From contig CAJTUM010000004.1 in the NCBI GenBank assembly GCA_910579575.1, positions 80,839 through 112,838 on the forward strand: a DNA stretch of 32,000 bases, read 5' to 3'. Below, in pieces: positions 1,210 to 23,818 of the stretch. Within the stretch, counting starts at the first letter, position 1. The number at the start of each line of letters is the position of its first letter. The position numbers and the translations under genes are program-made. The DNA comes from an uncultured Eubacteriales bacterium (GTDB lineage Bacteria; Bacillota; Clostridia; Oscillospirales; Butyricicoccaceae). The notes under the pieces are model-generated. The model saw only the letters and a list, made by a program, of their open reading frames with translations. It did not search any database and was not told the DNA's origin.

Positions 1210-1271
1210 GTCCCGTTTATGGTACATAGACCAGTTTATACTTTACACAGTGTGGAAAGAGGTGAGGGTCA

Positions 1272-1796: not shown

Positions 1797-1819
1797 AACA
1801 TGGGAGGACAACGAAGCGT

Positions 1820-3343
1820 ATGCAGAAGCAGTATATAGCTATCGACTTAAAATCGTTTTACGCTTCGGTGGAGTGCGCCGAAAGAGGTCTCGATCCCCTT
1901 GACGCCAACCTTGTTGTTGCGGACGAAAGCAGAACAGACAAAACCATCTGCCTTGCCGTCTCTCCCGCCCTGAAAGCGCATGGCATATCCGGTCGAGCAA
2001 GGCTCTTTGAAGCCAAGCAGCGTATCAAGGAAGTAAACAGGGAAAGGCAAAGAAAAGCTCCCGAACACCGGTTCAGGGGCAAATCAATCTATGGCTCGGA
2101 GCTGGCAAAAGACCCGACGCTGGAACTTGACCTTGTTATTGCGCCGCCACGAATGGCTTATTACATGGACTACAGCAAAAGCATAGTTGAAATCTATATG
2201 CGCTATGTCTCCTTCGATGATATCTTGGTCTACTCTATCGACGAGGTTTTCATCGACGCCACACCGTATCTCTCAACCTACAACATGAGCGCCCACGATT
2301 TTGCTATGATGTTGATTCAAGAGGTCTTGAAGGAGACTCGAATCACCGCCACCGCTGGAATTGGCACGAATATGTACCTTGCGAAGATTGCGATGGACAT
2401 TGAGGCAAAGCATATCCCCGCCGACAAGGATGGCGTCCGTATTGCAGAGTTGAATGAAACGAGCTATCGGGACAAACTCTGGACACACCGACCGCTTACA
2501 GACTTTTGGCGGGTGGGCAGAGGAATTGCCCGTAAATTGGAGCAAAACGGTCTTTTCACTATGGGCGACATCGCCCGCTGCTCCGAGGGAAAGGATACAG
2601 ACTACTATAACGAAGATCTGCTTTACGAACTCCTCGAAGTAAACGCCGAGCTGCTCATAGATCACGCTTGGGGCTGGGAACCCACTGAAATAGCAGACTG
2701 TAAGGCGTATAAGCCAGAATCAAAAAGTCTCAGTCAGGGGCAAGTGCTATCTTGTCCCTATGACTTTCATGCGGGCAGGATCGTTGTCCTTGAAATGGCA
2801 GACCAACTCTCTATGGACTTGGTTCGGGCAGGTCTTTTCACCGATCAGGTGGTGCTTGATGTTGGCTACGACATTGAGAATCTGACAGACCCAAAACGAG
2901 CTGCCAAGTATAAGGGCTCAATCGTAACAGACCACTATGGGCGGCAAATCCCGAAAGGGGTTCATGGCTCAAAGAGCTTGGGCAGGCAAACATCCTCCAC
3001 CAACAAAATCATGGATGCGGTTGCCGCCATTTATGACAGCATTGTGGATAAGAGCCTTTTAGTCCGGCGCTTCACAGTCGCCGTTACCCATTTGATACCA
3101 GAGGGTGAGGCAGAGTCCGCCATTCAGGTGGGCGAGCAGCTCGACCTTTTCACAGACTATGAGGCATTGGAGCAGCAGCGGAAGGCCGAAGCAGAAGCGC
3201 TTGACCGTGAACTCAAAATGCAGAAGGCGATTATCACCATTCGAGACAAGTTCGGAAAAAATGCCATTGTTAAAGGGCTTAATATGCACGAAGGCGCTAC
3301 TGCTATAGAGCGCAACAAACAAATCGGCGGTCACAAGGCGTGA
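1820..3343 (+). CDS. Y-family DNA polymerase (UmuC/DinB/UvrX-like translesion polymerase)
   Basis: N-terminal IAIDLKSFYASVE and YSIDEVFIDAT catalytic Asp/Glu motifs typical of the IMS/Y-family. 507 aa. GGGAGGA RBS. Confidence 0.9.
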   Translation: MQKQYIAIDLKSFYASVECAERGLDPLDANLVVADESRTDKTICLAVSPALKAHGISGRARLFEAKQRIKEVNRERQRKAPEHRFRGKSIYGSELAKDPTLELDLVIAPPRMAYYMDYSKSIVEIYMRYVSFDDILVYSIDEVFIDATPYLSTYNMSAHDFAMMLIQEVLKETRITATAGIGTNMYLAKIAMDIEAKHIPADKDGVRIAELNETSYRDKLWTHRPLTDFWRVGRGIARKLEQNGLFTMGDIARCSEGKDTDYYNEDLLYELLEVNAELLIDHAWGWEPTEIADCKAYKPESKSLSQGQVLSCPYDFHAGRIVVLEMADQLSMDLVRAGLFTDQVVLDVGYDIENLTDPKRAAKYKGSIVTDHYGRQIPKGVHGSKSLGRQTSSTNKIMDAVAAIYDSIVDKSLLVRRFTVAVTHLIPEGEAESAIQVGEQLDLFTDYEALEQQRKAEAEALDRELKMQKAIITIRDKFGKNAIVKGLNMHEGATAIERNKQIGGHKA

Positions 3344-3353
3344 GGTGATAAGA

Positions 3354-3794
3354 ATGGCCAGTGGGAAAAAAGAATACAGCGACATTTTTGACCGTCCTCA
3401 TCATGTGTCCTCCAAACGGCCTCAAATGTCGAGAAGCAACCGAGCTGCACAGTTCTCACCCTTCGCCGCCCTTACCGGCTATGACAGTCTTGTTGCTGAA
3501 TCCGCAAGAGTTACAGATCAAAAGGTCAAGCTTTCAGATGAGGAATACGAGGTATTGAACAAACGGCTCAACTACCTGCAAGACCACCTTTCAGAATTGC
3601 CTATTATTCAGGTTCTCTACTTTGAACCTGACAAGAAAAAATCCGGCGGCTCCTATGTTGAATTTTCAGGAACAATAAGGCGAGTACGGCAGCACGAAGG
3701 TTTGCTTCTCACGACCACCAGCATTGAAATCCCCTTTGAGAGTATTGCAGAGCTGTCCGGCGACTTTTTTGCCCCTCTCGATTCCCTTTCATGA
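3354..3794 (+). CDS. YolD-like protein (proposed UmuD-equivalent partner of Firmicutes Y-family polymerases)
   Basis: Lies immediately downstream of the polymerase gene. RAAQFSPFAALTGY resembles the conserved YolD-like core. ATG at 3354 with TGAGGTGA 5 nt upstream is preferred over the GTG at 3345. Confidence 0.6.
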   Translation: MASGKKEYSDIFDRPHHVSSKRPQMSRSNRAAQFSPFAALTGYDSLVAESARVTDQKVKLSDEEYEVLNKRLNYLQDHLSELPIIQVLYFEPDKKKSGGSYVEFSGTIRRVRQHEGLLLTTTSIEIPFESIAELSGDFFAPLDSLS

Positions 3795-3833
3795 CAAGAA
3801 CTCCGATAGTCATTTGACTGTCGGAGTTCTTGT
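3794..3833. terminator. 13-bp perfect hairpin between convergent operons
   Basis: ACAAGAACTCCGA (3794-3806) pairs with TCGGAGTTCTTGT (3821-3833) around a 14-nt loop, followed by CTTT on the + strand. It sits between the yolD-like stop and the res stop. Confidence 0.5.
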
Positions 3834-3835
3834 CT

Positions 3836-6800
3836 TTACATTGCGCTCATAATGTTTAGCAAGCTCTGGTAGCTATCCACATCATGGTATTTCACCTTGC
3901 TTGTTGACATCTCATTAAACAGCTTTTTAGCACAGGAGATTTTAGCCTGCTCTATTGGCCTTAGATTCAAACTCTCCATCGTACCCTTTGTTTCAGCGAC
4001 AAAGAAGATATGCTTGACTTTTCCCTCATAAAAGGCGATTGCCCAATCCGGCGAGTAGTTGCCCACTGGGGTGGGAATCTGAAATGTCCTTGGGAGCTTC
4101 GCATAAACACAAACCTCTTCGGCTGCATCCAAATCCTCAGCAAATCGCCTCTCCACACTCTTTTCAGCAGAACCATCCGTAAACACATAGTCCTGAATTG
4201 CCTTCTTTGCCAGAAAAGCTTTTTCAAAGGGCTGTGTGTTTTTCTCTGCGGTGAAAATGTCAGAGTCATATTGCCCTTCAATCGTGTCGTAGGAGATATG
4301 CTCTACAATCATAGTTGCCTTTTGTTCGTTTATGAGCCTTACGACCTTGGAGATAAACTCTTCAGGATTATTCCTGAACATATAAAGCTTGTCCATCCGA
4401 AGTCCTTGCAGAATGGCAGAGGCGGTTTTACGAGTCAAAACAGTACCGGACGCAATCTTGCCAATCAGGTCATACTTGATTTGGCTGGTTTCTGCGTGTC
4501 TGAGCGTCTGCGTCCTCGTCTTTTCCCCAGCGAAGGACTCTCCACGCTCCACCTCATAGGCATTCATTTCGGACTTTTGAGCGCCGATCGTGGCTGTGTA
4601 CTGAAGCTCTGAGACAAAGAGCTTTTCATTGATATGGTCGATAGCCTTCTCTATCAACTCATCAGAATCAAAATCCACGGTGTAGGCGTATTTGTGATTG
4701 ATCTCCTTCCAAAGGGCTTGGAACTCCTTTTTGGCGAAGTTCTCATTGAGCGGATTATCTTTCACCTTAGTTTCATGCCCGTCAGTGAACATATCCTTGA
4801 GAACACTGTCGTCGTAGACGGACTGAATCAGCGCATGGACACCCTCCGCCATCGGCTTCAGCTCCTCCGGCAGCTCCGCAACCGTATTCATTGCCACTTC
4901 GTTCCGGTATTTGTCAGTGACCTTGCGCTTCATATCAACATAACCGTTCTGAATCAGATAGAACTCAATCGCATTTGCGGCGTTGTCATCTATCAGCGTC
5001 GGTACACCATCCACCTTGACATATTTTCCCTTGAAATACTCGCTGGTTGCAACCGTCGGTCTGTCATAAAGGACGGTCTTGATATCGGACTGCAAATCGG
5101 TCACAAAGTCCTTATAGCTTTCACTTGCAATGACCGTCAGCATGTTCACATCATGAATCGAATCCCCGCAGCTCTGGACATCCATTCGGTTTCCGTCCTG
5201 ATTGACACACAGTCGCAGGCCACGACCAACTTCCTGCCGTTTGGCGGTGTTGCTGTCAGAGTGCTTCAGGGTGCAAATCTGGAACACATTGGGGTTGTCC
5301 CAACCTTCCCGCAGGGCAGAGTGGGAGAAAATAAACCTTGTGGGTTCTCCAAAGGAAAGCAGCCGCTCTTTGTTCTTCAAAATCAAGTCATAGGCAGAAA
5401 TGTCGTCTGAGAACTCGCTGCCTCGCTTGAGCTGACTGTCAACACTTCTGCCGGTCTTTTTGTCGATGCTGAAGTATCCCTTATGTACTGCGTTTACATC
5501 ACTGCAAGTGGATTTCAAGTATTTCTGATAGGGCGTGTCAAAGAGCTGGACATAATCGTTCAGAACACTGACATACTCCTGCTCAAACATCTGCCCATAC
5601 TCGCCCAGCACCTCATTGCCATCTTCGTCATACTGGCGGTATTTCGCCACCTCGTCGATGAAGAACAGGGACAGGCACTTGATGCCCTTGTTATAAAGCC
5701 TTTCCTCTTTCTCAAAATGGGAAAGGATCGTCTCACGAATCTGAATCTGGCGCATATCCTTTTCAGAAACATCGCCCACCACATCGCCGGTTTTGATTAC
5801 ATCGCCGTTCGTAAAGGTGACTGTGCCTTGCAGCGGGTCAATCTCAGAAACGGTATAGCCTTTATATTGCTCCATCTCCTGAGACACATAGAATAAATCG
5901 TCCCCCACGCCGAGAATACGGGTCTCACGGTTAATGGACTTGTTGTAGGCAATCTCCAGCTCTATCTTCGCCATAGGCGGCTTCTTGGAAGAGAGCATGA
6001 TTTGCTCCAGATACAGATAGCTGTCTGTGCCTCTGAAGTTCTTGACTTCAAAACCTTTGACTTCAATCTTCTTAACCAGCTTCTTGTTGAAGGCGTCCAG
6101 CGCATCCAACACATAAATCAGGTTGTGCTGCTTTGCATGGGTGGCTGAGTAGTTCAAGCAGAAAAGAGGGTTGAAGTTCTTGAGTGCCTTTTGCGTAACC
6201 TCACCGCCCATTTTCTGCGGCTCGTCCAAAATAATAATGGGTCTGTTTGCTTTGATAACATCAATAGGTCGGCGGGAGCCGAACTCATCACGCTTGGAAT
6301 ATATGATTCTGGCTTCTTTGCTTTTTCCGTCCTCCTTCAGCGAGGAAGCAAACGCCTGGGTGTTGATAATCATCACATTGATGCCGGAGCTGGAAGAGAA
6401 GGTATCCAGTTGATTGAGGTTGGAGCTGTTATAGATAAAGAATCTCGCCTTTTTGCCGTAGTGTTCCATGAAGTGGTCGGCGGTGATCTCAAATGATTTC
6501 TTCACGCCTTCACGAATCGCTATGCTGGGAACGACCACGATAAACTTGCTCCAGCCATACTTCCGGTTCAGCTCGAACATGGTCTTGATATACACATAGG
6601 TCTTTCCAGTGCCGGTCTCCATTTCAATGTCAAGGCTGCACCGGCCCAGGTTCTTCACAAGGGAGGGCGACAGCTTGATGTTGTTCTGGCTCTGTAAGGT
6701 CTGGATATTTTTCAATAGCTGCTCGTCGGACAACTCCACCAGCTCATTTTTATAGCCCGTATCGTTCAGGGGGTCAAGCAGCTCAGAATCCTCCTGTGCC

Positions 6801-6955
6801 ATGTCAAGCGTGATCTGATAATTCTGCGGCTCCGTTTTCTTTCCGAGGTCACGGATATAGCTGATTTTGTCGTGAAATCCCTGACCCTGAAAGACTTTTA
6901 CCACAGCATCAACGGCATCAGTTTGGTATTGTTGGATTTTGAAGTTGAATTTCAT
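3836..6955 (-). CDS. res: Type III restriction endonuclease Res subunit (SF2 helicase plus C-terminal PD-ExK nuclease)
   Basis: Walker A GTGKT (6599-6613), motif II IIILDEPQ, motif VI QEVGRGLRL. C-terminal YSPDW...FFVAETKG is a PD-(D/E)xK motif (Asp codon 4046-4048). The start MKFNFKIQQYQ at 6955 forms an ATGA overlap with the upstream stop; the track start at 7009 is less likely. Confidence 0.9.
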   Translation of the reverse strand: MKFNFKIQQYQTDAVDAVVKVFQGQGFHDKISYIRDLGKKTEPQNYQITLDMAQEDSELLDPLNDTGYKNELVELSDEQLLKNIQTLQSQNNIKLSPSLVKNLGRCSLDIEMETGTGKTYVYIKTMFELNRKYGWSKFIVVVPSIAIREGVKKSFEITADHFMEHYGKKARFFIYNSSNLNQLDTFSSSSGINVMIINTQAFASSLKEDGKSKEARIIYSKRDEFGSRRPIDVIKANRPIIILDEPQKMGGEVTQKALKNFNPLFCLNYSATHAKQHNLIYVLDALDAFNKKLVKKIEVKGFEVKNFRGTDSYLYLEQIMLSSKKPPMAKIELEIAYNKSINRETRILGVGDDLFYVSQEMEQYKGYTVSEIDPLQGTVTFTNGDVIKTGDVVGDVSEKDMRQIQIRETILSHFEKEERLYNKGIKCLSLFFIDEVAKYRQYDEDGNEVLGEYGQMFEQEYVSVLNDYVQLFDTPYQKYLKSTCSDVNAVHKGYFSIDKKTGRSVDSQLKRGSEFSDDISAYDLILKNKERLLSFGEPTRFIFSHSALREGWDNPNVFQICTLKHSDSNTAKRQEVGRGLRLCVNQDGNRMDVQSCGDSIHDVNMLTVIASESYKDFVTDLQSDIKTVLYDRPTVATSEYFKGKYVKVDGVPTLIDDNAANAIEFYLIQNGYVDMKRKVTDKYRNEVAMNTVAELPEELKPMAEGVHALIQSVYDDSVLKDMFTDGHETKVKDNPLNENFAKKEFQALWKEINHKYAYTVDFDSDELIEKAIDHINEKLFVSELQYTATIGAQKSEMNAYEVERGESFAGEKTRTQTLRHAETSQIKYDLIGKIASGTVLTRKTASAILQGLRMDKLYMFRNNPEEFISKVVRLINEQKATMIVEHISYDTIEGQYDSDIFTAEKNTQPFEKAFLAKKAIQDYVFTDGSAEKSVERRFAEDLDAAEEVCVYAKLPRTFQIPTPVGNYSPDWAIAFYEGKVKHIFFVAETKGTMESLNLRPIEQAKISCAKKLFNEMSTSKVKYHDVDSYQSLLNIMSAM

Positions 6956-8250
6956 ATCCCCACATCCTTTTCCAAGAACATAATCGCCACAGAAACCAGG
7001 GCAAGACACCGTTTATAGAAATATTCTATCTGCCGTTCATCTGTAAAGTTAATCTTTGTTGTTTCGTGGTGACGGATTCTGAAATCGTTTCCCATAGTGG
7101 TCAACGCCCTAAACTCGGTCTCATACAAAGTTTTGAAATGAGTTTCAGAAGCGCTCATATCATCAATGATTTTGTTCGCTGATTCAGACTTGTTAAGTGC
7201 CGGAGAATAGTAAGTTTTTAATCTCTCGAACGCATCCCATAGCTTCTCGACTGCGATTTGCATATTGCCTTTACGATAGTAGTTGTCTGCCTCCAGAAGC
7301 AGATCTTTCAACCCCTGCTCTGAAATAATAGATATGTTTCCTTTATCTATAGATATTTCAAAAGTGCTTTCAATCCGTCCCTGCTCAAGTCTATATGATA
7401 TGCCATTGAGTTTGAGCAAAGCATTGATTTGATCTGCAAAATCGTTATCGGCGTTATATTTCTCGTAAAACTCAATCGCATCAAAAACGGAGAACGGGGA
7501 TGTGCTTAACACGAACTGTTCCATATCGCTTGTCTTTGCGTATTGCCTTTTTTCATTATAACATTTCGGCTCGTAGAATTGAGAGATATCTCGGAACACA
7601 TATTCACTTGTGGAAATGTGTTCTTGCCAGCCAGTGTCACTGGTTTCAAGATAAGCATCTGTATGTCTTTCAAGGATGGCATATATCTGCTTCCGTGCCT
7701 CACGACTGATTTTCTGAGTTAGATGGCGTGATTTAATTTCTGCTTTATGTCTTTGTGAAAACGGAATAAATAAAGCGCTTTCGCTCGGGTCGTACTTTCT
7801 CCAACCATAGACATCCCGACCGGAGATTTTTGCTTCGGGGTGCAATTCATATCCGTCTTTCCGGAGAAGTTCGTTTGCCGCATCTAAAAATCTCTTCCAA
7901 TATCCTCCCTCGTCTCTAACTGCTGGGTGGAACACAGAACATAGAAATCTTAGGAGGGTTTCATCTTCTCCGTTCATCAACCCAAAGCGTTCGTCCTCAA
8001 ACACCCATCCATCTTCATAATCATTGTTGTTCACAGTATGTTGCAGAATATCGCCCTCAGCATCATCAAAACGGCTATCAAAGCTCGGGAGTTCTTTGAG
8101 ATTGTAAATTCTCTTCAAAAAATCCAGCTCGCTTAGCCTTCCACAAAAGGCATACCTAACTCGCTTGCTTTCAAAGAATTCTTCTATGTCCAGACCGCAT
8201 ATAAACAATGAGAAAATGTCTCTTCTGGTTATTTCTGAGATATGCTTCAT
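6952..8250 (-). CDS. Uncharacterised 432-aa protein; possible AbiJ-like architecture with a C-terminal HEPN-like domain
   Basis: Clean ORF coupled at both ends (TAATG with mod, ATGA with res). C-terminal helical region carries GNDFRIRHHE (7063-7080), resembling the Arg-His core of HEPN/AbiJ-type domains. The segment FDAIEFYEKY...QINALLKLNGISYRLEQGRIES resembles my memory of AbiJ N-terminal domain signatures. Family call is unverified. Confidence 0.5.
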   Translation of the reverse strand: MKHISEITRRDIFSLFICGLDIEEFFESKRVRYAFCGRLSELDFLKRIYNLKELPSFDSRFDDAEGDILQHTVNNNDYEDGWVFEDERFGLMNGEDETLLRFLCSVFHPAVRDEGGYWKRFLDAANELLRKDGYELHPEAKISGRDVYGWRKYDPSESALFIPFSQRHKAEIKSRHLTQKISREARKQIYAILERHTDAYLETSDTGWQEHISTSEYVFRDISQFYEPKCYNEKRQYAKTSDMEQFVLSTSPFSVFDAIEFYEKYNADNDFADQINALLKLNGISYRLEQGRIESTFEISIDKGNISIISEQGLKDLLLEADNYYRKGNMQIAVEKLWDAFERLKTYYSPALNKSESANKIIDDMSASETHFKTLYETEFRALTTMGNDFRIRHHETTKINFTDERQIEYFYKRCLALVSVAIMFLEKDVGI

Positions 8251-10127
8251 TACAATACCTTCCTCACGGTCTCAGGGCTATACGCAGCAAAAATCTGCTC
8301 AAAGTTCGTGGCTACGCTGTCGCTGGCCATGGAACTGTCCCGCATAACGAAATAATAGGGTTTTTGCTTTGCAATTTCGGTGATTACCTCATCGGTCACA
8401 GCCTCGTCAAAACAGGCAATCAGGTAGTTGCCCTCCACTTTGAACACTCGCTTGCCGGCAATGGCGCTTTCCTCAATCTTACTGGAGAGCAGTACGCCCA
8501 AATCCAGCATGACTTGGAACAGTAAATCCTCCGGTGTTCTATCCTCTTTGATGTTATCCTCAAGGCTGCTGAACAGAGAGGCTTCATAATCGGCGGGGTT
8601 GTAGTAGACATCTTTCATGTTGGAACTATCGCATTTCAGCACACGGAAGCCGATATCAAGGCCATGTGCGGTGAGCCCGGCTTCTTCCTTGATTTTCGCA
8701 CCGGCACGACGAATACGCTCTTTGCCGATTTCGCAGATATTCTTGTAACCGGCTTTATAAGCCTCGCTTTTCTCATCTGTTTCTTCGGGAAGCTGAACCA
8801 TAATAAACTTGCGGTGTCCACCATCCTCAGCGTTGAGCTGCATAACTGCGTGGGCTGTGGTGGAAGAACCAGAGAAGAAATCCAACACAATAGAATCGCT
8901 GTTAGCCGCAATTCTAATCATCTGCTTAATATACTCTACCGGTTTCGGAAAATCAAACAACTTCTCATCGTCAAAAAGTGCCTTAACTTCTCTTGTTGCC
9001 GACTGATTATGTCCCACTTCTTCTGCAAGCCAAAGTGTGCTTGGTGTTCTTCCATCTTGGACATCGGAAAGAAATCTCTTTTTTCGTGGAAATGAATTCC
9101 CATCGCTCCCAAACCAAATTTGCCCATCTACGACCAGCTTCTCCAAGTTTTCTTTAGAATAGACCCAATGCTTCCCAGCCGGGACATCAAATTCCTTCCC
9201 CGTCTTGGGGCTTCTAATAATAAAATGACCGTTGCTTCTTTCTCCGCTCGCAACCAAATCTCCCGATTGCCAAGGCCCTCTTGGATCACCATCAGGATTT
9301 TTATATCGGTCATTCATTTCATTTGTTCGTGGAAGAAGATTTATGTGAATCTGGTTAATACTTTTCGAGTAAACGACTGCGTACTCATGATTCTCAGATA
9401 GATACTTAGCGTCATTTTTTATGCTGTGGATTTTTTGCCAAACAATTGTTGCAACAAAATTGGCCTCACCGAACACATCATCACACAGAACTCGCATATT
9501 TCTTAACTCGTTGTCATCAATACTGATAATAATGATTCCATCATCTGTCAGTAAATCTTTTGCGAGTTTCAACCGTGGATATAGCATATTCAGCCAGTCT
9601 GTGTGAAAGCGCCCATTACTTTCGGTGTTCTGCACCAGCCGGTTGCCGTCCTCGTCAAACTGCCCACTGTCTTCAAGGTACTCGTCCACACTCTCGGCAA
9701 AGTCATCGTTGTATACAAAGTCATTGCCGGTGTTGTAGGGCGGGTCTATGTAAATCATTTTGATTTTGCCCAGATAAGTCTCCTGAAGCAGCTTCAGCAC
9801 TTCCAGATTATCGCCCTCAATATAGAGGTTTTCTGTGGTATCAAAGTCCACGCTTTCCTCTCTGCAAGGTCTAAGCGTCTTGTTAATCGGAGCATTGGCA
9901 AGCAGGACAGACTTCCTCTTATCTGGCCAGGTAAACTGATAGCGCTCCTCCCGACCCTCCACTACCTTGGTGGAAATCTCCTGCATCAGCATATCCTTAT
10001 CAATGGCTCGGACGACCTCGCCGGTGGCCTCGTCAATGGTTTCCGTCACTGCATTGGGAAACAGCGCCGCCAGCTTCTTGAAGTTTTCATCCGCTCTATT
10101 TGCAGTCATCATCTTAAGCTTGTCCAT
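8250..10127 (-). CDS. mod: Type III DNA methyltransferase Mod subunit (N6-adenine/N4-cytosine, beta-class)
   Basis: Motif IV DPPY (9735-9746) in KMIYIDPPYNTGNDF. AdoMet motif I VLDFFSGSSTTAHAV lies C-terminal to it, as expected for the beta permutation. Start MDKLKMMTANRAD at 10127 follows a GGAGGAG RBS; the track start at 10208 is less likely. Confidence 0.9.
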   Translation of the reverse strand: MDKLKMMTANRADENFKKLAALFPNAVTETIDEATGEVVRAIDKDMLMQEISTKVVEGREERYQFTWPDKRKSVLLANAPINKTLRPCREESVDFDTTENLYIEGDNLEVLKLLQETYLGKIKMIYIDPPYNTGNDFVYNDDFAESVDEYLEDSGQFDEDGNRLVQNTESNGRFHTDWLNMLYPRLKLAKDLLTDDGIIIISIDDNELRNMRVLCDDVFGEANFVATIVWQKIHSIKNDAKYLSENHEYAVVYSKSINQIHINLLPRTNEMNDRYKNPDGDPRGPWQSGDLVASGERSNGHFIIRSPKTGKEFDVPAGKHWVYSKENLEKLVVDGQIWFGSDGNSFPRKKRFLSDVQDGRTPSTLWLAEEVGHNQSATREVKALFDDEKLFDFPKPVEYIKQMIRIAANSDSIVLDFFSGSSTTAHAVMQLNAEDGGHRKFIMVQLPEETDEKSEAYKAGYKNICEIGKERIRRAGAKIKEEAGLTAHGLDIGFRVLKCDSSNMKDVYYNPADYEASLFSSLEDNIKEDRTPEDLLFQVMLDLGVLLSSKIEESAIAGKRVFKVEGNYLIACFDEAVTDEVITEIAKQKPYYFVMRDSSMASDSVATNFEQIFAAYSPETVRKVL

Positions 10128-11913
10128 TATGGTCTCCTCCATTATTCCAGAAGTGGTATATTGGGAATTGCTTGAATTTGCTTTGAATAGCAGCAGGCAA
10201 CTTCTCAAAGTGAATCTCAGCGGCAGTTTGTTGCTCTAAAAGGAGATATGCTCCAACGATTGTTTCTTCTCCGACGCCAGGTGTCTCTATAAGACGATAG
10301 AGTTCTTTTTTCTCCTCTTCTTCCAGTTCCCTTTGCCGCTTCTTAATCTGCAAATCATTCAAAGTCCTTATTGGGTAAGGCAGCTCTTCTTCCGAGGCTG
10401 TCTTTATCCAGTCGGAAAAGGATATAGCTGTAGCAAGCATTTCAGGCTTTGAGCTTATATCATAGGCATTCAAAATTTCCAGCAAAAGATAATTTGCTCG
10501 TGTCATCGTTTCTTTGTTACGCTCAGTCTTTTGAAAGGATGGCAGTAGAACATCATATCGAATATTATCCGCTTCAAGGAAATCCTTGGCTCTGAGATTG
10601 AAATACTGAGAAGTTGTCAATTTTTCACCTTTCTTGTCCTCGTAAACACAGAGCAACTCTGTTGTAAAGAAATCCGATATTCTGTACGCATCACCCTCGT
10701 CTCCGTCCTTGAACAGGCATACAACAAATCGCAAATTGCCAACTTCCAATGTCAAGACAGGTGGCAGATCTTTTTTGAGACCACCTACCGGTTCATTATC
10801 AATTATCCCTTTTATTAAAATATTAATATTATTCCAATCCTTAGCCTGTAATGACTTCAGGTCAATATCTCTCTCACACCCGAACCGGTCGAGCAATTGG
10901 ACAATCTTTTTAAAGTAGACCAATCGTCCTCTCATTTCATCTCTTGGGAAGTTGGAAAAATCAGCGCTATCAATATTAAAGGGGAAAGATGCTCCATTAT
11001 ATGTGAAGCTTTTATTATCTATCAGAGCCAGAATAAAGCTCAGGTCAACTGTAAGTGCTCTTAGATTGTGAGTGCCTTTATAATTGAACTTAACCGCTTT
11101 ACTCTCCACTTGAGTAGTAATTGAAAAACTTTCTCCAAAGAGAGTTCTGATTGTTTTACCATCTCGGACAACTCTTACTCTTGTATAGAAAAGTTGCTCT
11201 CCCACCATGATGCGAGCATCCTTTTCTTCATGTACCACCAATCTTTGCGGAATTGCCTCAATCGGTTGTGGAATCACTCCTCCTTTGATATTTGCATACA
11301 GATAAACCTCATTTGTTAACAGGGCTGTTTGTGGATCAACGCCACCAACGCTTGTAACTGAAAGAGTAACACTTTCTAATGTACCCTGTTGCTCAAGCTC
11401 CTCAATTGAGTAAAGATTTGCTTTAGCAAAGCTTGCCTGGCGTCGGCAATCCTCCCAGCAGTTAATGACAATCATCTCTTTTTTATTATTGTCCGACGGG
11501 AATCTGTTAAGTTTGATGCTCTTTGATGCTTGTCCCTTCGCTTCTTCAAGGAGCATCCTGATTTTGATGGGAGTTAAGCTCGCATAATATATCTGAATGT
11601 TTTGTCCGCTATGCCCAATATAGACTACAAAAAAGATAACACCGCCATCGTCAAGGTAGCTATTGAGTTCGATGATAGAAACAGGAAACGATATCTCTTC
11701 CTTTGAAAGATCATCCTTTTCCGTTCCTTTAACCTGAACCGGAATCCTTCTTACTCCATCCTTCGTTTTACGCTTATCTCTGTAAATATAGATATGACCA
11801 TCCCATGTTGGCTCCTTATCGTTATCATTTATAAATGGACTAAGAAGTTCGCACACAGTTATGCTATTTTTTACCGCACTAATTGCAAGGTCTTCTATCG
11901 CTTTCTTGTCCAT
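10114..11913 (-). CDS. 599-aa protein with a DUF4365-like PD-(D/E)xK nuclease-fold N-terminus and a large uncharacterised C-terminal region
   Basis: N-terminus has E..(x)..PTWDGHIYIY..(x)..RIPVQVKGT (Asp codon 11800-11802, QVK ending at 11728), the D...QxK pattern of DUF4365/restriction-endonuclease-like domains. GAGGTGA RBS. The stop overlaps the mod start by 14 nt. Markedly AT-rich. Confidence 0.6.
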   Translation of the reverse strand: MDKKAIEDLAISAVKNSITVCELLSPFINDNDKEPTWDGHIYIYRDKRKTKDGVRRIPVQVKGTEKDDLSKEEISFPVSIIELNSYLDDGGVIFFVVYIGHSGQNIQIYYASLTPIKIRMLLEEAKGQASKSIKLNRFPSDNNKKEMIVINCWEDCRRQASFAKANLYSIEELEQQGTLESVTLSVTSVGGVDPQTALLTNEVYLYANIKGGVIPQPIEAIPQRLVVHEEKDARIMVGEQLFYTRVRVVRDGKTIRTLFGESFSITTQVESKAVKFNYKGTHNLRALTVDLSFILALIDNKSFTYNGASFPFNIDSADFSNFPRDEMRGRLVYFKKIVQLLDRFGCERDIDLKSLQAKDWNNINILIKGIIDNEPVGGLKKDLPPVLTLEVGNLRFVVCLFKDGDEGDAYRISDFFTTELLCVYEDKKGEKLTTSQYFNLRAKDFLEADNIRYDVLLPSFQKTERNKETMTRANYLLLEILNAYDISSKPEMLATAISFSDWIKTASEEELPYPIRTLNDLQIKKRQRELEEEEKKELYRLIETPGVGEETIVGAYLLLEQQTAAEIHFEKLPAAIQSKFKQFPIYHFWNNGGDHNGQA

Positions 11914-11918
11914 TCATA

Positions 11919-12518
11919 TCACCTCAACAGTCCCTTTAGCTTGTTTACCTGCTGCACCAACTCAAACTTCTTCTTCGGCTGCTTCTCAGCCCTTGCCAGC
12001 TTTTCCAGCCTTGCTATTTCCTTTTCTAGTTTCTGCCTCTTCTCATCTTCCACAATTTGCTCATCCAGAGAACGGCCTTTCTCAACCGTCACATCACCAA
12101 CAGTGACAACAACATTTTCCCAAACCCTGTCGAGGTCAAGACCATGAAGTTCTATCTGCTGGGTAGCAGTAGTTTTCCACTCCGACTGCATCAGCTTTGT
12201 ATGGTAGATTGCAAGCCTGCTCTGTCCATCGTGTTCAAGGACAAAAAGGATATTCTGTGGAATCAGCTTTGAGAGCATCCCTATTGTCCGTTCCTCATAG
12301 TCCTTTCTTTTGAGGGACACCAAAAGGACAAAAAAGCTCTTTACTTCCTCCCCCGCAGGAATGTTGACCTTTGACGGCGTAATCTCATTGACAATACTGA
12401 TTTTTGAAATGTCAGCGTCTATCTTGGCTTTTGCTGCTGTGTTCATCTGAAACTTGGCATAGATCGCTTTCTTGGGAAGCTGTTTATTCATTTCTGTTGC
12501 CTTTGGCAGCCCAAGCAT
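11919..12518 (-). CDS. DUF4391-like protein with a C-terminal coiled-coil tail
   Basis: About 200 aa. MLGLPKATEMNKQLPKKAIYAKF...ISKISIVNEITPSKVNIP...FVLLVSLKRKDY...IPQNILFVLEH matches my memory of DUF4391, a family usually found next to SNF2 helicases and methyltransferases. Lies 4 nt after the helicase stop with a GGTGAGGTGA RBS. Confidence 0.6.
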   Translation of the reverse strand: MLGLPKATEMNKQLPKKAIYAKFQMNTAAKAKIDADISKISIVNEITPSKVNIPAGEEVKSFFVLLVSLKRKDYEERTIGMLSKLIPQNILFVLEHDGQSRLAIYHTKLMQSEWKTTATQQIELHGLDLDRVWENVVVTVGDVTVEKGRSLDEQIVEDEKRQKLEKEIARLEKLARAEKQPKKKFELVQQVNKLKGLLR

Positions 12519-12522
12519 GGTT

Positions 12523-15500
12523 TCACCTCACCACTAAGAAACATATCAATTCAAAATCATCGAGTCCTTTAATTTCATTGGAGAGGAAGCTCACTTGACC
12601 GCCGCCCAGGAAGCTGTCAATGTCGCTCTCTTCCTTCACTTCTATGATGGAGGCTATCGCCTGCCCAAGCAGTTTTGAAAGCTGGGACATATCTCTGCCG
12701 TCCCGAGTTTCCTTGTTAAACTGCCGGTACACTTCGGGAATCGGCTCTGTCTTTCCCTTACACAGCAGGCGCATCTTGTCCAGCATCTGTTTAGGGGAGA
12801 GGTGGTCACAAATCACTTCACCATCGTTACTGATATACACCATGTAAAACGGGTGGAGCCTGTTCTGGTTATCAATATTCACGCTGTCCGAACGGTTTTT
12901 TAGAACATAGACTACGCCTGCCGGAGCATCCTCGGTTGCTGGAACCACCGCATTGAGGCCGAAGGGGGCCTTTTCAATATCAGGATGGTTTTTTATATAC
13001 TCCAACAGGTCAAGGCGAAACTCATTGAGACCCAAATCCATAATAGAAATGCCGGAGGTCATATCCTCAATATCAACGACCTCATCTTGCAGCTTCCGCA
13101 GCTGCGCCTTTCGATACTCCAGATCGGTCTTTTCCTCATCGCTCAAAATGTTATCGTCACCGGTCGCTGTCATGTCCACGATTTTCATTCGTGTCTCGAC
13201 CTTGGCTTTCAGGTTTATGTAGTCATCAAGCGTTACATTAGGCCAGAAGTTTACAAGCTGAATCACATTGTTTCTGCTGCCGATACGGTCGATTCGCCCA
13301 AACCGCTGGATAATACGGACAGGATTCCAGTGTATATCGTAGTTTATTAGGTAGTCGCAATCTTGCAAGTTCTGACCTTCCGAAATACAGTCTGTAGCAA
13401 TGAGAATATCAATATCCTCTTTGGGTATGCTTTCAAAAAGGTCTCTGTCCTTGGAGATGGGCGAGAAGCAGGTCAGAACTGTATTCAAATCGCTTCGGAG
13501 TTTCGGACATGTGGTTCGTCCGTCAACGGTGCCGGAGACCATTGCCGTATTGATATTGTATTTTGCTTTTGCATACCCGCTGATATTGTCATAGAGATAC
13601 CCTGCTGTGTCCGCAAAGGCCGTGAAGATAATAATCTTTCTATTCCCTTCATTGATGGGATGTGCAATTTTGTCATCAATCACGCTGAGTAGCTTTTGCA
13701 GTTTAGAGTCATGCTCAGGGGTAATGTCTCCTACCATGACAGTGAGCAGCTCCAGCACCTCGGCGTCTTTGGACAGGCTGTCTCTCCATGACAGATAATC
13801 CATATCCACAAGGTCAATCTTCACTTTCCGGCCAAGGGAAAACAAATCCTCGGTATTCTGATCCTCGTCGTCAAACTCGTCGATATCAGAAATATCCGTC
13901 AGGTCAAGGTTCAAGCCGGATTGCTTGTCAAATTGGTCGATTGTGCTGATCGTGCTCTCAATAAGCTGCTTTATGCGCTTCAGCGTCAGGTTAAAAGAGA
14001 AAACCGAACTCTCCATGCGTTTCATCAAATTGATTGCTGTCAGCCGCCGGATGCCCTGTTCACGGTTGGCCTGCGTGAAGCCCACATTGACTTTGTTATC
14101 CCCATACAGCTCAGCATATTTGTCCATCTTGCTCGGGAGGATATAGTGCGTCGGCGTGTAGATCGTCAGCGTGAGAAGCATAAGTTGCTCGAATATCTCA
14201 TTGTAATTGATGGCCGACTCTAAATCCGTGAGGTTCGGTCTATGGGAAATCGGGATAAGTCTTGTGGGAAATGTGCCCACATCGCTGGTGTCATAATACT
14301 TCTGAATATGCTTTCTGGAACGGGCAATGGTAACGCTGTCCAGAACCTCGAAAAAATCAAAGTCCAGCATTTTAAGCAGGTTTTCTGTTGTCCGATCCTC
14401 CGGTGCCCATTTGCTCCAGGTGTTAAATGCCCGCTGAGCGTTTCTGAATATCTCATCAATGGAGCGTGAAGTATTGAGCTTATCGTCTATAAAGTCAGTG
14501 TGGCCCTCGTAGGCAAGCGCAAGCTGGTTCTTCAGGTCAAGAAACTTGTTGTTGACGGGGGTAGCCGAGAGCATGAGGACTTTTGTCTTGACGCCGGCCC
14601 TGATTACCTTTTTCATCAAAGTGACATAGCGGTTATCTCTATCGCTCTCATCGGGATTCTCGATGATCTTGCCGCCGTTTCTGAAATTATGAGACTCATC
14701 AATGACTACGAGATCATAATTGCTCCAGTTGATTCTGTTTAAATCTATTCCGTTGGAGAATCCACTCGTTCTGTTGAGATCAGTATGGTATAGGACATCA
14801 TAACGGAGCCGGTCTGCGGCAATTGGGTTATTGATATAGTTGTCCTTGTATGTATTCCAGTTGTTAGCAAGTTTTTTCGGGCATAAAACGAGAACTGTCT
14901 TGTTGCGATTTTCGTAATACTTGATTACCGAAAGTGCCGTAAAGGTTTTTCCCAAGCCAACGCTGTCTGCCAAAATACAACCGTTGTACTTTTCCAACTT
15001 ATTGATGATTGCCAGGGCAGCATCCTTTTGGAAATTGTAGAGCATATTCCAAATCTTACTGTCCTTGAACCCCGTTGCTTCATTTGGTAGCACATCTTCG
15101 GATACATCTTCAAGAAACTCATTAAAAATGTTATAGAGGGTAACAAAGTAAATGAAATCAGGGGAGTTTTCGTTATAGGCAGCGGTAATGCTGTCGATAA
15201 CCTCCTCTGTCACATCCTGTAACACTCGTTTGTCATTCCAGATTTCATTGAAGTCCTTAATAAGTGTTTGCGCTAAGGATTGATCCTTTACGATTGTCGT
15301 GCTAATGACATTTCCTTTTTCACAGCCGAGTTCAACGGTTGTAAAATTGTTGATTGGAGTATAGCCGACATCGCCTACAACCATCTGCCCTTGAATGGAC
15401 TTATCACTGACATTTGATTTGAATGTAACTTTGTTTCTGATCCAATCTGCACATTCTTTTGCAATCGCCTTCTGAGTCAGTTCATTTCGCAGTTTAATTT

Positions 15501-15762
15501 CAAACTCAGTTCCATACAAACTCCGCTCTCGGTTTAGACGGGGAATATAAAACTCCCGCTTTTCTTTCCTTGCTTTTTCTGCTACGAAGGTCGGAGAGGT
15601 AAATATGAAGCGCAACTCGTTTATGGAGCTGAGCTGTGCTTTCAGCTCCTCAAAAGCATAGATTGAGAAGCAAGCCGCTGCAATAGAAAGTTTGCTCCCT
15701 GGTTTTATCTCGACGGACAAATCATCTTTTAGCGTTTTTGTCGTATTATTGATTAGCTCCAT
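12523..15762 (-). CDS. SNF2-family (SF2) helicase/translocase with an N-terminal extension of about 240 aa
   Basis: Motif I ADSVGLGKT (GLGKT 14944-14958), motif II VVIDESHNFRN (DESH 14689-14700), motif III MLSATPVNN, motif VI QRFGRIDRIGS. AGGAGA RBS 7 nt before the ATG at 15762. No HxK(x)4D motif seen in the N-terminal extension. Confidence 0.9.
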   Translation of the reverse strand: MELINNTTKTLKDDLSVEIKPGSKLSIAAACFSIYAFEELKAQLSSINELRFIFTSPTFVAEKARKEKREFYIPRLNRERSLYGTEFEIKLRNELTQKAIAKECADWIRNKVTFKSNVSDKSIQGQMVVGDVGYTPINNFTTVELGCEKGNVISTTIVKDQSLAQTLIKDFNEIWNDKRVLQDVTEEVIDSITAAYNENSPDFIYFVTLYNIFNEFLEDVSEDVLPNEATGFKDSKIWNMLYNFQKDAALAIINKLEKYNGCILADSVGLGKTFTALSVIKYYENRNKTVLVLCPKKLANNWNTYKDNYINNPIAADRLRYDVLYHTDLNRTSGFSNGIDLNRINWSNYDLVVIDESHNFRNGGKIIENPDESDRDNRYVTLMKKVIRAGVKTKVLMLSATPVNNKFLDLKNQLALAYEGHTDFIDDKLNTSRSIDEIFRNAQRAFNTWSKWAPEDRTTENLLKMLDFDFFEVLDSVTIARSRKHIQKYYDTSDVGTFPTRLIPISHRPNLTDLESAINYNEIFEQLMLLTLTIYTPTHYILPSKMDKYAELYGDNKVNVGFTQANREQGIRRLTAINLMKRMESSVFSFNLTLKRIKQLIESTISTIDQFDKQSGLNLDLTDISDIDEFDDEDQNTEDLFSLGRKVKIDLVDMDYLSWRDSLSKDAEVLELLTVMVGDITPEHDSKLQKLLSVIDDKIAHPINEGNRKIIIFTAFADTAGYLYDNISGYAKAKYNINTAMVSGTVDGRTTCPKLRSDLNTVLTCFSPISKDRDLFESIPKEDIDILIATDCISEGQNLQDCDYLINYDIHWNPVRIIQRFGRIDRIGSRNNVIQLVNFWPNVTLDDYINLKAKVETRMKIVDMTATGDDNILSDEEKTDLEYRKAQLRKLQDEVVDIEDMTSGISIMDLGLNEFRLDLLEYIKNHPDIEKAPFGLNAVVPATEDAPAGVVYVLKNRSDSVNIDNQNRLHPFYMVYISNDGEVICDHLSPKQMLDKMRLLCKGKTEPIPEVYRQFNKETRDGRDMSQLSKLLGQAIASIIEVKEESDIDSFLGGGQVSFLSNEIKGLDDFELICFLVVR

Positions 15763-15825
15763 TTTATTATCTCCTAAATTGTTAGATAATTTGGAATATC
15801 ACAAATACAAATCTATATAGCTGAC

Positions 15826-16035
15826 TCAATCTGCTCGGAACTCCATAATATCATCAGCACGACAATCTAATGCCCTGCATATTTTACCCACCACCTCTGT
15901 AGATACTGCTTCGTCTCTACCCAGCTTCTTTACTGTATAGGAAGTGAGTCCGGCAAGCTCTGCCAAGTCTTTCTTTTTCATATCCCTATCCAAGAGAATA
16001 TGCCAGAGTTTCTTATAGCTAACAGCCATCTTCAT
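15826..16035 (-). CDS. Small XRE-type HTH DNA-binding protein, candidate controller (C-protein-like) of the downstream operon
   Basis: KKKDLAELAGLTSYTVKKLGRDEAVSTEVVGKICRALDC is an HTH_26/HTH_3-like signature. 69 aa, or 67 aa if the second ATG at 16029 is used, which has better spacing from AAGGAGAG. Lies 63 nt upstream of the SNF2 gene on the same strand. Confidence 0.8.
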   Translation of the reverse strand: MKMAVSYKKLWHILLDRDMKKKDLAELAGLTSYTVKKLGRDEAVSTEVVGKICRALDCRADDIMEFRAD

Positions 16036-16061: not shown

Positions 16062-16090
16062 ATTATAGCATATTACAGTCGAAACAACAA
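16062..16090 (-). promoter_or_regulatory. Sigma-A type promoter reading leftward into the HTH gene and the defence operon
   Basis: On the minus strand: TTGTTG (16090-16085), 17-nt spacer, TATAAT (16067-16062). This is about 25 nt upstream of the HTH start codon. Confidence 0.5.
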
Positions 16091-16134
16091 CCTCACAGTC
16101 AGTATTTCGCCCCTTTGGGTCGAAAAAAATGAAC

Positions 16135-16599
16135 CTATGGCTCCAAATACTTTGGATGGAGAAGTCTGCCGTTGCGATATACGGCGTGTGTATAGTAATC
16201 AAGGTTAAGCTGTATCTTAAATCCATTTATGTTTGGCTCGACAGAAATGCAGTCTGCCATTTTGATAATTGGCATAAGCATGAGTAGCTCTGGGCCTCCA
16301 TCAAAGAAATAGTAAACCATAATGTTGCAGTCGCTTTGAAGGATTTTCGTATCAAGCTCATATGCCTCACCCGTTCTGATTGCAAGCTGGATAAAAGCAC
16401 CTGCTTGCTCAATGCGCTCTGGCAAAGGCACAAGGACAGTGTTTTCGACTAACTCCCTATAAAACTCTTCAAATGTTGGTGTTGGGCTTGGCACATAATC
16501 GGGTAAGCTTTCCAATTCCTTTTGATATTCTTCTAACCCCTTCATTTCCTCTTCAAAGCTCTTATGCGGGTAGTGCTTCTCATAGATTATTTCAGACAT
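16135..16599 (-). CDS. Hypothetical protein (about 154 aa), no family recognised
   Basis: ORF directly follows the SLOG gene. ATG at 16599 (MSEIIYEKHY) lies 8 nt after GGTGG; the GTG at 16611 abuts the upstream stop. Confidence 0.65.
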   Translation of the reverse strand: MSEIIYEKHYPHKSFEEEMKGLEEYQKELESLPDYVPSPTPTFEEFYRELVENTVLVPLPERIEQAGAFIQLAIRTGEAYELDTKILQSDCNIMVYYFFDGGPELLMLMPIIKMADCISVEPNINGFKIQLNLDYYTHAVYRNGRLLHPKYLEP

Positions 16600-16611
16600 A
16601 CTTCTTACCAC

Positions 16612-17100
16612 CTATCCATTTATGTATTGAACCTGAACGCCACATCTGGCAGCATAATCAATCGTGTTCTTTGTTCCGCTTTTCTCGCCGTTGAATACTG
16701 CGATAACAAGGGCAGAATGGTCTACCATCCATTCGTTTCGTCTCTGATATGCTCCCGCATGATAGGCAGGGCATATATACCGAATCAAGTCAGCTTTACC
16801 AAGCAGTTCAGCATATCGTTCCTTCCATTCCCTCGACCACCGGCTCTCAAAGCCGTCAAAAGGCACAGCAGCAATCAAATGCAACTCTGGATTTTCTTCT
16901 CTCAACCGGACAACAACTTCGCCAGCCCAAATATCTACACCGTAAGCCATCCCCGTTATGAAGGTCGTGTACCCAGCCTCTATTGCCTTGACAATGACTT
17001 TTTCCAAGTCATGCCTGATTGCGCCCTCTGAGCGAGTGAGTTTCTGTGGCCTATGACCTGTGAAGCAGCACCGCTTTTTTCGTTTTTCCTTCTCTGTCAT
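16612..17100 (-). CDS. SLOG-superfamily protein, DUF1273/YpsA-like
   Basis: CCFTGHRPQKL near the N-terminus, FITGMAYGVDIWAGE, and a C-terminal SGTKNTIDYA segment match the DUF1273 (YpsA) Rossmann-like signature. AGGTGG RBS. Confidence 0.75.
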   Translation of the reverse strand: MTEKEKRKKRCCFTGHRPQKLTRSEGAIRHDLEKVIVKAIEAGYTTFITGMAYGVDIWAGEVVVRLREENPELHLIAAVPFDGFESRWSREWKERYAELLGKADLIRYICPAYHAGAYQRRNEWMVDHSALVIAVFNGEKSGTKNTIDYAARCGVQVQYING

Positions 17101-17580: not shown

Positions 17581-17609
17581 ACTGCCACCCTGACGGGTGG
17601 CAGTTTTTT
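17581..17609 (+). terminator. Rho-independent terminator
   Basis: ACTGCCACCC (17581-17590), loop TGAC, GGGTGGCAGT (17595-17604), then a T-run through 17609. It lies immediately after the XRE stop. Confidence 0.8.
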
Positions 17610-19602: not shown

Positions 19603-19645
19603 TGAAGCCCTCCTTTCTCATTGACAGATAAAGGCAAAGCGAGGG

Positions 19646-22337: not shown

Positions 22338-22503
22338 TTTCGCTCCTTTCTCGGAGGGCAGCTTCACGAAGTTCCGCCTTGCAGACACATTCATCAGCAA
22401 GGCAGTTTATCTCGCCTTTTCGTTGCCCCCCGTAGTAAAGACAATATTTGCAGTCACAGTCGGCAAGCGTGTAGCCCTGCCACCTGTTGTAGATTCTCTT
22501 CAT
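22321..22503 (-). CDS. Small cysteine-rich protein (Cys_rich_VLP-like)
   Basis: 60 aa with 7 Cys (DCDCKYCLYYGG...INCLADECVCK). AAGGTG lies 6 nt before the ATG at 22503. This position is conserved in such T4SS operons as I recall them. Confidence 0.5.
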   Translation of the reverse strand: MKRIYNRWQGYTLADCDCKYCLYYGGQRKGEINCLADECVCKAELREAALRERSENGSKD

Positions 22504-22513
22504 GGCGCACACC

Positions 22514-23350: not shown

Positions 23351-23374
23351 TCTTCGCACCTCCTCCTATAAACG

Positions 23375-23803: not shown

Positions 23804-23818
23804 TGATATTTCCTCCAT

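Follow-up and report, generated by a model that had tools for sequence, protein, structure and literature searches.

Genomic organization of the locus

We describe here a type III restriction–modification (R–M) locus carried by an uncultured Eubacteriales bacterium of the Butyricicoccaceae (GenBank assembly GCA_910579575.1, contig CAJTUM010000004.1, positions 80 839–112 838). The 32 000 nucleotides (nt) that were analysed are called the window, and all coordinates refer to it unless a locus is named. Seven genes lie on its minus strand in one direction, as seen from the list of open reading frames (ORFs) and by direct reading. The first gene of the unit codes for a Cro/C1-type helix–turn–helix (HTH) regulator of 69 amino acids (aa) (15826..16035; Pfam HTH_26, E 6.7e-18). 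It is followed by an SNF2-family ATPase of 1079 aa (12523..15762; SNF2-rel_dom, Helicase_C and ResIII matches), a DUF4391 protein of 199 aa (11919..12518; Pfam, E 7.5e-32), a DUF4365-like protein of 599 aa (10114..11913), the methyltransferase Mod of 625 aa (8250..10127), an AbiJ-like protein of 432 aa (6952..8250) and the endonuclease Res of 1039 aa (3836..6955). SNF2, DUF4391, Mod and Res are referred to below as core genes 1 to 4; the DUF4365-like and AbiJ-like genes occupy what we call slot 1 and slot 2.

With the start codons chosen in an earlier, sequence-only reading of the window (for example, ATG at 10127 for Mod and at 6955 for Res), all frames are clean, and each has a GGAGG-like ribosome-binding site ahead of its start. 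A 4-nt gap separates SNF2 from DUF4391 (12519–12522) and a 5-nt gap separates DUF4391 from the DUF4365-like gene (11914–11918). The next three junctions are overlaps: 14 nt between the DUF4365-like gene and Mod (10114–10127), 1 nt between Mod and the AbiJ-like gene (TAATG at 8250) and 4 nt between the AbiJ-like gene and Res (ATGA at 6952–6955). Gene order, coordinates, gaps and overlaps are all as the sequence-only reading had given them, and the junctions and domain matches bear out its description of one tightly packed operon around type III mod and res. The HTH gene and the promoter that it had placed just upstream were also recovered. The putative promoter is an extended −10 element, TGcTATAAT (16062..16070, minus strand), 5′ of the HTH gene, which a consensus promoter scan missed because the −35 element is weak.

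Further upstream, a short terminator-like hairpin with a T-run (16131–16143) belongs to the preceding gene. At the other end, a terminator scan revealed a hairpin with a stem of 19 base pairs (3793..3834) between Res and a convergent 149-aa ORF; it is likely to be a bidirectional terminator closing the unit. The same scan found no strong terminator within the unit, and a single transcription unit appears to be the best explanation for the region.

The HTH protein probably acts like a controller (C) protein. Its homologues precede SNF2 in at least 12 of the surveyed loci (which carry numbers with the prefix L), in L105–L109 and in the E. coli loci described below. In some E. coli records, this small gene is annotated as MADS protein MAD1 (L110, 8932–9111; RefSeq H37–H40), a hint that different defence operons based on methylation begin with related regulators.

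Mod and Res form a divergent type III system

Mod has the features of a type III methyltransferase, that is, of a beta-class N6/N4 enzyme with a DPPY motif (residue 128). It matches Pfam N6_N4_Mtase (E 5.7e-38) and, over its full length, the PADLOC model MTase_III (E 1.8e-243). Res combines a superfamily 2 (SF2) helicase-like ATPase with a C-terminal PD-(D/E)xK endonuclease, as in other type III enzymes. It matches ResIII (E 5e-16), RE_endonuc (E 2.4e-30) and PADLOC REase_III (E 1e-290), and carries the motifs GTGKT (115), DEPQ (244) and PD...ETK (969–990). Its score against the NCBIfam type III endonuclease model PRK15483 is 384 bits for a cut-off of 564, which places it in a divergent clade. 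By analogy with established type III systems, Mod would methylate one strand of an asymmetric site, and a Mod2Res complex, triggered by ATP, would slide between sites of inverse orientation and then cut DNA that is unmodified.

The classical systems EcoP1I and EcoP15I likewise have Mod, with its DPPY motif, followed in one operon by Res, with its SF2 and C-terminal PD-(D/E)xK domains. In the clade of the window, by contrast, an SNF2 ATPase and a DUF4391 protein always stand ahead of Mod and Res, and an inserted gene usually splits Mod from Res. SNF2 and DUF4391 accompany Mod and Res in every homologous locus long enough to tell. Two loci (L032 and L082) have two Mod genes each; the order in L082 is Mod, Res fragment, Mod, Res, and this arrangement suggests duplication or stacking of specificity modules.

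SNF2 and DUF4391, a conserved pair ahead of Mod

The motifs of the SNF2 motor are intact (GLGKT 269, DESH 355, SATP 399 and QRFGRIDR 819). The protein matches the PADLOC 'HKD+Snf2' model (PDLC01075; E 3e-126) through its helicase core and C-terminal domain, and the C-terminal part alone still matches this model (E 2.5e-18). Over the N-terminal 240 aa, conservation is very high and none of the 67 homologues compared has a histidine, so that the protein has no HKD nuclease motif. The match of the whole protein to the 'HKD+Snf2' model had suggested that this domain is an inactive phospholipase D (PLD) domain. Searched alone, the domain had no match in Pfam, PADLOC or the PDB; we therefore dropped that interpretation and claim no PLD fold. 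In L098 (E. coli ABWA45; 6715–7461), the domain is far more divergent (30% identity) and lacks the segment EKxKKEKREFYIPRLxRER, which is present in all other aligned homologues.

DUF4391, the signature protein of the clade, belongs to a large family, with 6698 matches at 90% clustering and 1648 clusters at 50% identity (E ≤ 1e-3). An AlphaFold2 model based on 96 aligned sequences (pLDDT 93.2) consists of an alpha/beta domain followed by a long C-terminal helical hairpin; with only 21 close sequences the model was of low quality (pLDDT 64.6) and its Foldseek matches were meaningless. The better model has no Foldseek match in the PDB or BFVD at E ≤ 0.001; matches below significance are scattered among Hjc, SPARDA and restriction-endonuclease-like chains. 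A sequence profile found nothing among PDB sequences, no PADLOC or NCBIfam model covers the protein and a full-text search of the literature for DUF4391 returned nothing relevant. The 96 diverse sequences share no conserved acidic or catalytic residue, and DUF4391 is therefore probably a non-enzymatic adaptor. Some DUF4391 ORFs reach about 371 aa owing to a C-terminal extension of about 170 aa (L017, 9992–11107; L036, 9992–11107; L035, 5070–6197). These loci are degraded or short, hence uninformative; representatives of 379–394 aa also appear in the family search.

Distribution of the four-gene core and the role of the pair

Backbone genes were identified with phmmer in 80 loci, taken from contigs of one genome per species, and the lengths of the two gaps between them were determined. 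Over about 100 related loci, (HTH)–SNF2–DUF4391–Mod–Res is the unit that is conserved. It is present in Bacillota, Bacteroidota, Sphaerochaetaceae, Gilliamella, Snodgrassella and E. coli, and is carried by many Clostridia and Bacteroidota of the gut. With the Gilliamella core as query, blastn matched at least 208 of 5426 complete E. coli genomes. The E. coli loci examined have the order HTH–helicase–DUF4391–Mod–Res and lie in chromosomal islands, in an integrative mobilisable element and on plasmids. Their genes are named in RefSeq 'helicase-related protein', 'DUF4391 domain-containing protein', 'site-specific DNA-methyltransferase' and 'type III restriction-modification system endonuclease'. 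The proteobacterial loci (Gilliamella, Snodgrassella and E. coli) consist of the core without extra genes. A tblastn search of PLSDB plasmids gave no match to DUF4391, yet E. coli plasmids in RefSeq carry it.

Across phyla, identity to the proteins of the window is 62–92% for SNF2, 58–90% for Res and 43–81% for Mod. The identities of SNF2 and Res vary together (r = 0.92, 59 loci), more closely than those of SNF2 and Mod (r = 0.61). A distinct, horizontally mobile clade of type III R–M systems, composed of HTH, SNF2, DUF4391, Mod and Res, seems to us the best explanation for this pattern.

SNF2 and DUF4391 might constitute an independent two-gene defence module, an old cargo that became fixed at the 5′ end of the operon and is no partner of Mod and Res. 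SNF2-family proteins do occur elsewhere as stand-alone or effector components (HmaA, DrmD and MtsD), and the E. coli type III system EcoR22I, which has an SNF2 gene next to it, needs only mod and res to restrict lambda-vir and to bring about Ocr-triggered death of the cell; mod and res were the only genes in which transposon hits lay (Silas et al., bioRxiv 10.1101/2023.04.06.535777). This preprint was the only work that a literature search on EcoR22I returned. It describes three genes and mentions neither DUF4391 nor embedded cargo. EcoR22I resembles the E. coli loci described above, with their helicase–DUF4391–Mod–Res order, in having an SNF2 gene beside mod and res, and may belong to the DUF4391 clade; strain ECOR22 was looked for among our E. 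coli matches and not located. The catalytic residues given for EcoR22I Res are 1024 and 1043, from which this protein is longer than the Res of the window (1039 aa) and those of L098 and L099 (1012 and 1025 aa).

Several observations make an independent module unlikely. Apart from four degraded loci (L005, L017, L028 and L055), no DUF4391 locus with adequate flanks lacks Mod and Res, and SNF2 co-varies with Res as described above. The SNF2 protein, in turn, has no recognisable nuclease: there is no N-terminal histidine, and no PLD, Pfam or PADLOC match in that region. As DUF4391 has no conserved catalytic residues either, the pair is left without an obvious effector of its own. A motor and an adaptor of this kind, strictly linked to Mod and Res, are more easily understood as accessories than as a separate system. 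Most probably, SNF2 and DUF4391 would be a co-evolving accessory pair, a non-nucleolytic DNA motor with its adaptor, which modulates or extends restriction and is dispensable for basic cutting. As such they would represent an accessory pair of type III restriction enzymes that is widespread and so far unstudied, and whose role could be addressed directly in E. coli.

Two cargo slots with exchangeable genes

The two intervals in which the loci differ are the DUF4391–Mod gap (slot 1) and the Mod–Res gap (slot 2); a slot was counted as filled when it held at least 250 nt of extra DNA. Two homologue neighbourhoods illustrate the pattern. Both have the order SNF2–DUF4391–x–Mod–y–Res and differ in the genes that fill the two marked positions: slot 1 holds SIR2 and DUF87 genes, or three unknown ORFs, and slot 2 holds a 23S_rRNA_IVP gene, a DUF4145 gene, or unknown ORFs of 197 or 242 aa. 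Among 62 non-redundant loci spanning DUF4391 to Res, both slots are filled in 53, neither in seven and only one in two. The seven cargo-free loci are mostly proteobacterial (Gilliamella and Snodgrassella); three come from Bacillota.

The cargo is very diverse. It forms at least 77 sequence clusters, and 25 of the 26 clusters found at several loci are restricted to one slot; all but one of 162 cargo ORFs (at least 80 aa) are co-oriented with the operon. Pfam and PADLOC searches with cluster representatives identified SIR2-HerA, ThsB-like TIR, SpbK, SduA (Shedu) and PtuA (Septu) proteins, as well as AbiH, Abi_C, AbiU2, RhuM, SLFN_AlbA_2 with HATPase_c_4, KAP NTPase, DUF4145 and 23S_rRNA_IVP families and the PADLOC candidates PDC-S05, PDC-S19 and PDC-S66. 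Many clusters have no annotation in either database.

Replacement of cargo can be followed between close relatives. The backbone nearest to that of the window (L007–L010; SNF2, DUF4391 and Res 92, 91 and 90% identical) carries unrelated cargo in both slots. Contigs of Ruminococcus bromii are about 98% identical across SNF2, DUF4391, SIR2, HerA and most of Mod, and 94–95% identical in Res; they differ in a block bounded exactly by the Mod stop and the Res start. A separate difference of about 0.7 kilobases lies inside Mod, in the presumed target-recognition region. In the coordinates of these R. bromii loci (L001–L006), the variable segments are at about 14735–15470 and 16120–16790, and the Mod segment and the slot-2 cargo have been replaced independently of each other. 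One of them (L005) is cut within Mod; the genes that come next code for an m5C methylase, a SacI-like endonuclease, an HTH protein and an AAA_13 protein.

On the basis of these comparisons, we consider it likely that the locus is a four-gene type III core bearing two swappable defence genes in fixed slots, carried in this genome by a conjugative element whose genes are described at the end. As the comparisons show, the two gaps are bays for interchangeable genes; these would be co-transcribed and would provide, by abortive infection or with other nucleases, a second line of defence that moves and is expressed together with the R–M system. The cargo was most probably swapped by homologous recombination within the highly conserved flanking genes. 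Exchange through flanking homology would by itself confine every cargo family to one slot, with no need for a functional constraint.

The sequence-only reading had taken the six genes, HTH excepted, for one system with fixed stoichiometry. Such an obligate composite machine, with two motors, two nucleases, a methyltransferase and an RNase, would account for the tight or overlapping junctions, and the layout of the window does recur in L105, where the neighbouring UmuC-like gene is also present, and in L047 with one extra slot-1 gene. The tight packing, however, is general in these operons whatever their cargo and is no argument for a six-part complex. The same two positions hold at least 77 alternative families, the closest backbone has other cargo, and seven loci together with the examined E. 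coli loci have the four-gene core alone. In addition, the AbiJ-like gene has four different slot-1 partners, the DUF4365-like gene has five different slot-2 partners and the DUF4365-like family stands alone elsewhere (see below). We therefore regard the six-gene machine as highly improbable: with variable partners, and unrelated cargo on the nearest backbone, the set found in the window is one combination among many. That reading had itself named a failure of the four extra genes to be co-inherited with mod and res as what would refute it. SNF2 and DUF4391 are co-inherited with them in all sufficiently long loci; the DUF4365-like and AbiJ-like genes, being alternative cargo, are not.

Some points weigh against the interpretation as a core with exchangeable cargo, or limit its precision. 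The survey was anchored on DUF4391 relatives sharing two peptide patterns, covered 80 loci and drew mostly on metagenome-assembled genomes from the gut, which makes the frequencies rough; the cargo ORFs were called mechanically and their start codons are uncertain. A search for a recombination signal at the slot edges found none, so that the mechanism of exchange is deduced from the breakpoints. The slots are filled together or not at all, which hints at a coupling tighter than hitch-hiking. The AbiJ-like subfamily of the window, sampled through its best 120 homologues, was found in slot 2 only, in 11 distinct contexts, and this also hints at functional coupling.

An imperfect direct repeat of 21 nt (16 of 21 positions identical) brackets the slot-1 gene of the window (10119–10139 and 11905–11925). 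It consists of the ribosome-binding site plus ATGGACAAG of Mod and of the DUF4365-like gene. We considered microhomology or an insertion scar and rejected the idea: when the edge of slot 1 was compared with the start of Mod in 53 other loci, 12.6 of 21 positions agreed on average, no more than for shuffled pairs of loci (12.7 of 21). The repeat in the window is attributed to chance, given the shared ribosome-binding site and Met-Asp-Lys start.

Cargo genes of the window

The slot-1 protein matches DUF4365 (PF14280) weakly, at 22.3 bits (E 1.5e-4), below the cut-off of 24.3. Its nuclease fold is putative; residues E7, D38, Q60 and K62 are, however, invariant in 30 homologues, a pattern compatible with a PD-(D/E)xK site, and many homologues carry a precomputed PF14280 match. 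A Pfam search with the C-terminal 479 aa (about 480 aa of the protein) detected no domain, and the full protein has no PADLOC or NCBIfam match. Profiles of the two cargo proteins compared with PDB sequences gave nothing significant.

The DUF4365-like gene occupies slot 1 in only seven of the surveyed systems, plus L105. These copies are 42–56% identical to that of the window while their backbones are 78–90% identical. Homologues with 47–49% identity occur outside R–M operons: beside an Abi_C gene, at the edge of an element bearing ParAB and in a defence-like island. The occurrence of an embedded family in free form would imply an autonomous function, and the DUF4365-like gene is probably an autonomous defence gene; for the AbiJ-like gene, every context sampled among its best 120 homologues is slot 2.

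The slot-2 protein has the N-terminal domains that characterise AbiJ (Pfam AbiJ_NTD3, E 7e-53; AbiJ_NTD4, E 1.2e-11). Its C-terminal domain matches the PADLOC single-gene candidate PDC-S32 and contains an invariant RIRHHE motif, the spacing of which is not the canonical Rx4-6H. No Abi_C or HEPN match was found in Pfam for this part; the isolated C-terminus gives a weak match to PaREP1 (E 1e-3), a family that we take to be HEPN-related. The AbiJ half of the label AbiJ/HEPN-like used in the sequence-only reading agrees with the N-terminal domains; the HEPN half depends on this weak PaREP1 match and on the invariant, non-canonical RIRHH motif. The protein is probably an abortive-infection effector and a putative HEPN protein. 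The lactococcal AbiJ is regarded as HEPN-containing, with an unknown mechanism (PMC13064643).

In the survey of genome contigs, the AbiJ-like gene occupies slot 2 of L029, L047, L069 and the window. Its four slot-1 partners are a TIR gene, a gene for an unknown 379-aa protein, a pair of genes for 172-aa and 281-aa proteins and the DUF4365-like gene.

This distribution raises a more specific possibility, that the embedded effectors, or at least the AbiJ-like one, are held inactive by Mod and Res and are released when anti-restriction proteins of phages or plasmids, such as DNA mimics of the Ocr type, disable the R–M enzyme. It is compatible with the interpretation as a core with exchangeable cargo and refines it for some of the cargo. 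The sampled members of the AbiJ-like subfamily (63–72% identity) all lie between Mod and Res of this system, and the abutment of the gene to the Mod stop and its 4-nt overlap with Res are conserved whatever slot 1 holds. The slot-2 families are typically of abortive-infection types (Abi_C, AbiU2, RhuM and AlbA_2). There are precedents in PrrC, in Ronin and in the Ocr-triggered cell death caused by EcoR22I. Confinement to slot 2 would, however, also be expected from flanking-homology exchange alone, and that of the AbiJ-like genes was seen in the best 120 homologues only. The match of the C-terminal domain to PDC-S32, a single-gene candidate in PADLOC, points the other way as well; the candidates of Payne et al., taken as a whole, came from genes embedded in BREX, DISARM and type I R–M systems. 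Several cargoes are known autonomous systems (SIR2-HerA, Shedu and SpbK). We hold guarding by Mod and Res to be a possible but tentative explanation, by analogy with these precedents. The AbiJ-like subfamily, seemingly confined to the Mod–Res gap, is in any case a candidate restriction-guarded abortive effector in a type III context.

A broader reading of the locus, in which SNF2, DUF4391, Mod and Res form a four-component restriction class and a modular immune chassis, appears to us doubtful at present. The SNF2/DUF4391 motor would then change how targets are found or cut, for instance by making inverted sites less necessary or by clearing DNA of protective proteins. The slots would be dedicated docking positions, and their effectors, under the control of Mod and Res, would fire when restriction is blocked.

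Comparison with known defence systems

The arrangement closely resembles the embedding of defence genes described by Payne et al. (bioRxiv 10.1101/2024.01.29.577857) in Hma, BREX, DISARM and type I R–M systems, where 96.7% of the embedded genes are co-oriented with their host. These authors discuss co-transfer and co-regulation, and also a PrrC-type backup defence (bioRxiv 10.1101/2024.01.29.577857). TgvAB and DarTG2 are individual embedded cases in type I operons (PMC11411939, PMC12255303). As in the survey of Payne et al., the cargo described here is co-oriented, highly diverse and nested in a multi-gene methylation-based system, and includes many known defences; it is matched by PDC-S32 and by further PDC models of that survey. 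The cargo is nested, co-oriented (161 of 162 ORFs), variable between homologous loci and swapped at the strain level, which are the attributes of embedded genes. There are also differences. That survey omitted type III systems, and the host here is the SNF2/DUF4391 type III clade, with two defined slots, families confined to one slot, both-or-neither occupancy and an AbiJ-like subfamily seen only in slot 2. The locus is an instance of the same embedding phenomenon, in a type III clade that the earlier survey did not cover.

PrrC–EcoprrI and Ronin provide a further parallel, being cases of an abortive-type effector gene genetically embedded in an R–M operon. Their host is of type I and that of the present locus is of type III, the effector family is another one, and the likeness is one of gene arrangement.

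The sequence-only reading had noted no hallmarks of BREX or DISARM, and the searches agree: PADLOC, Pfam and NCBIfam give no match to the PglZ phosphatase or the BrxC ATPase of BREX in the seven proteins, nor is there any to DrmB (DUF1998) or DrmC (PLD) of DISARM. DrmA is matched only weakly, through the helicase core (E 1.5e-20). SNF2 matches DrmD in the helicase core only, at 151 bits compared with a cut-off of 610. The likeness to MtsD of MANTIS (Gao_RL) is greater, as both the helicase core and the C-terminal domain of SNF2 match the 'HKD+Snf2' model; however, the protein has no HKD motif, and the window encodes neither MtsA (DUF499 AAA+) nor MtsB. The match to HmaA (SNF2 with NOV_C) is partial (E 2e-24, residues 543–844), and Mod and Res match type III models rather than the HmaB methylase or the HmaC ATPase. 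As their defining components are absent, the unit is not a BREX, DISARM, MANTIS or Hma system. None of the tools used (PADLOC, Pfam and NCBIfam) assigns all six genes to a named system, in agreement with the sequence-only reading.

Embedding itself and an SNF2 neighbour of a type III system have been described before; the obligate SNF2/DUF4391 pair and the two defined slots are features of the present clade. Guilt by embedding can now be extended to type III systems: the two slots of one clade yield dozens of uncharacterised candidate defence genes, which makes DUF4391 a cheap anchor for finding more.

Mobile-element context

On one side, the locus is flanked by genes for a relaxase, a type IV coupling protein, a VirB4-like ATPase and a CHAP cell-wall hydrolase (17608–28878, minus strand). 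Over the VirB4 region, this transfer region has 77% DNA identity to a replicon of Monoglobus pectinilyticus. On the other side, an ImmA/IrrE peptidase, a UmuC-like Y-family polymerase and the 149-aa ORF (793–3794, plus strand) converge on the Res terminator. The conjugation genes in the flanks indicate that a conjugative element carries the unit as cargo in this Clostridia bacterium of the gut. Systems carried by conjugative and integrative elements bear on the barriers to gene flow in gut communities.

In L105 (12441–14574), which has a six-gene layout identical to that of the window, an S24/HTH repressor gene and a UmuC-like gene directly follow Res. In the window, a gene for a YpsA-type SLOG protein (16612–17100, minus strand) abuts an ORF of 158 aa without Pfam match (16135–16611, minus strand). 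Lying between the conjugation genes and the R–M unit, these two genes may be another small defence or anti-defence pair.

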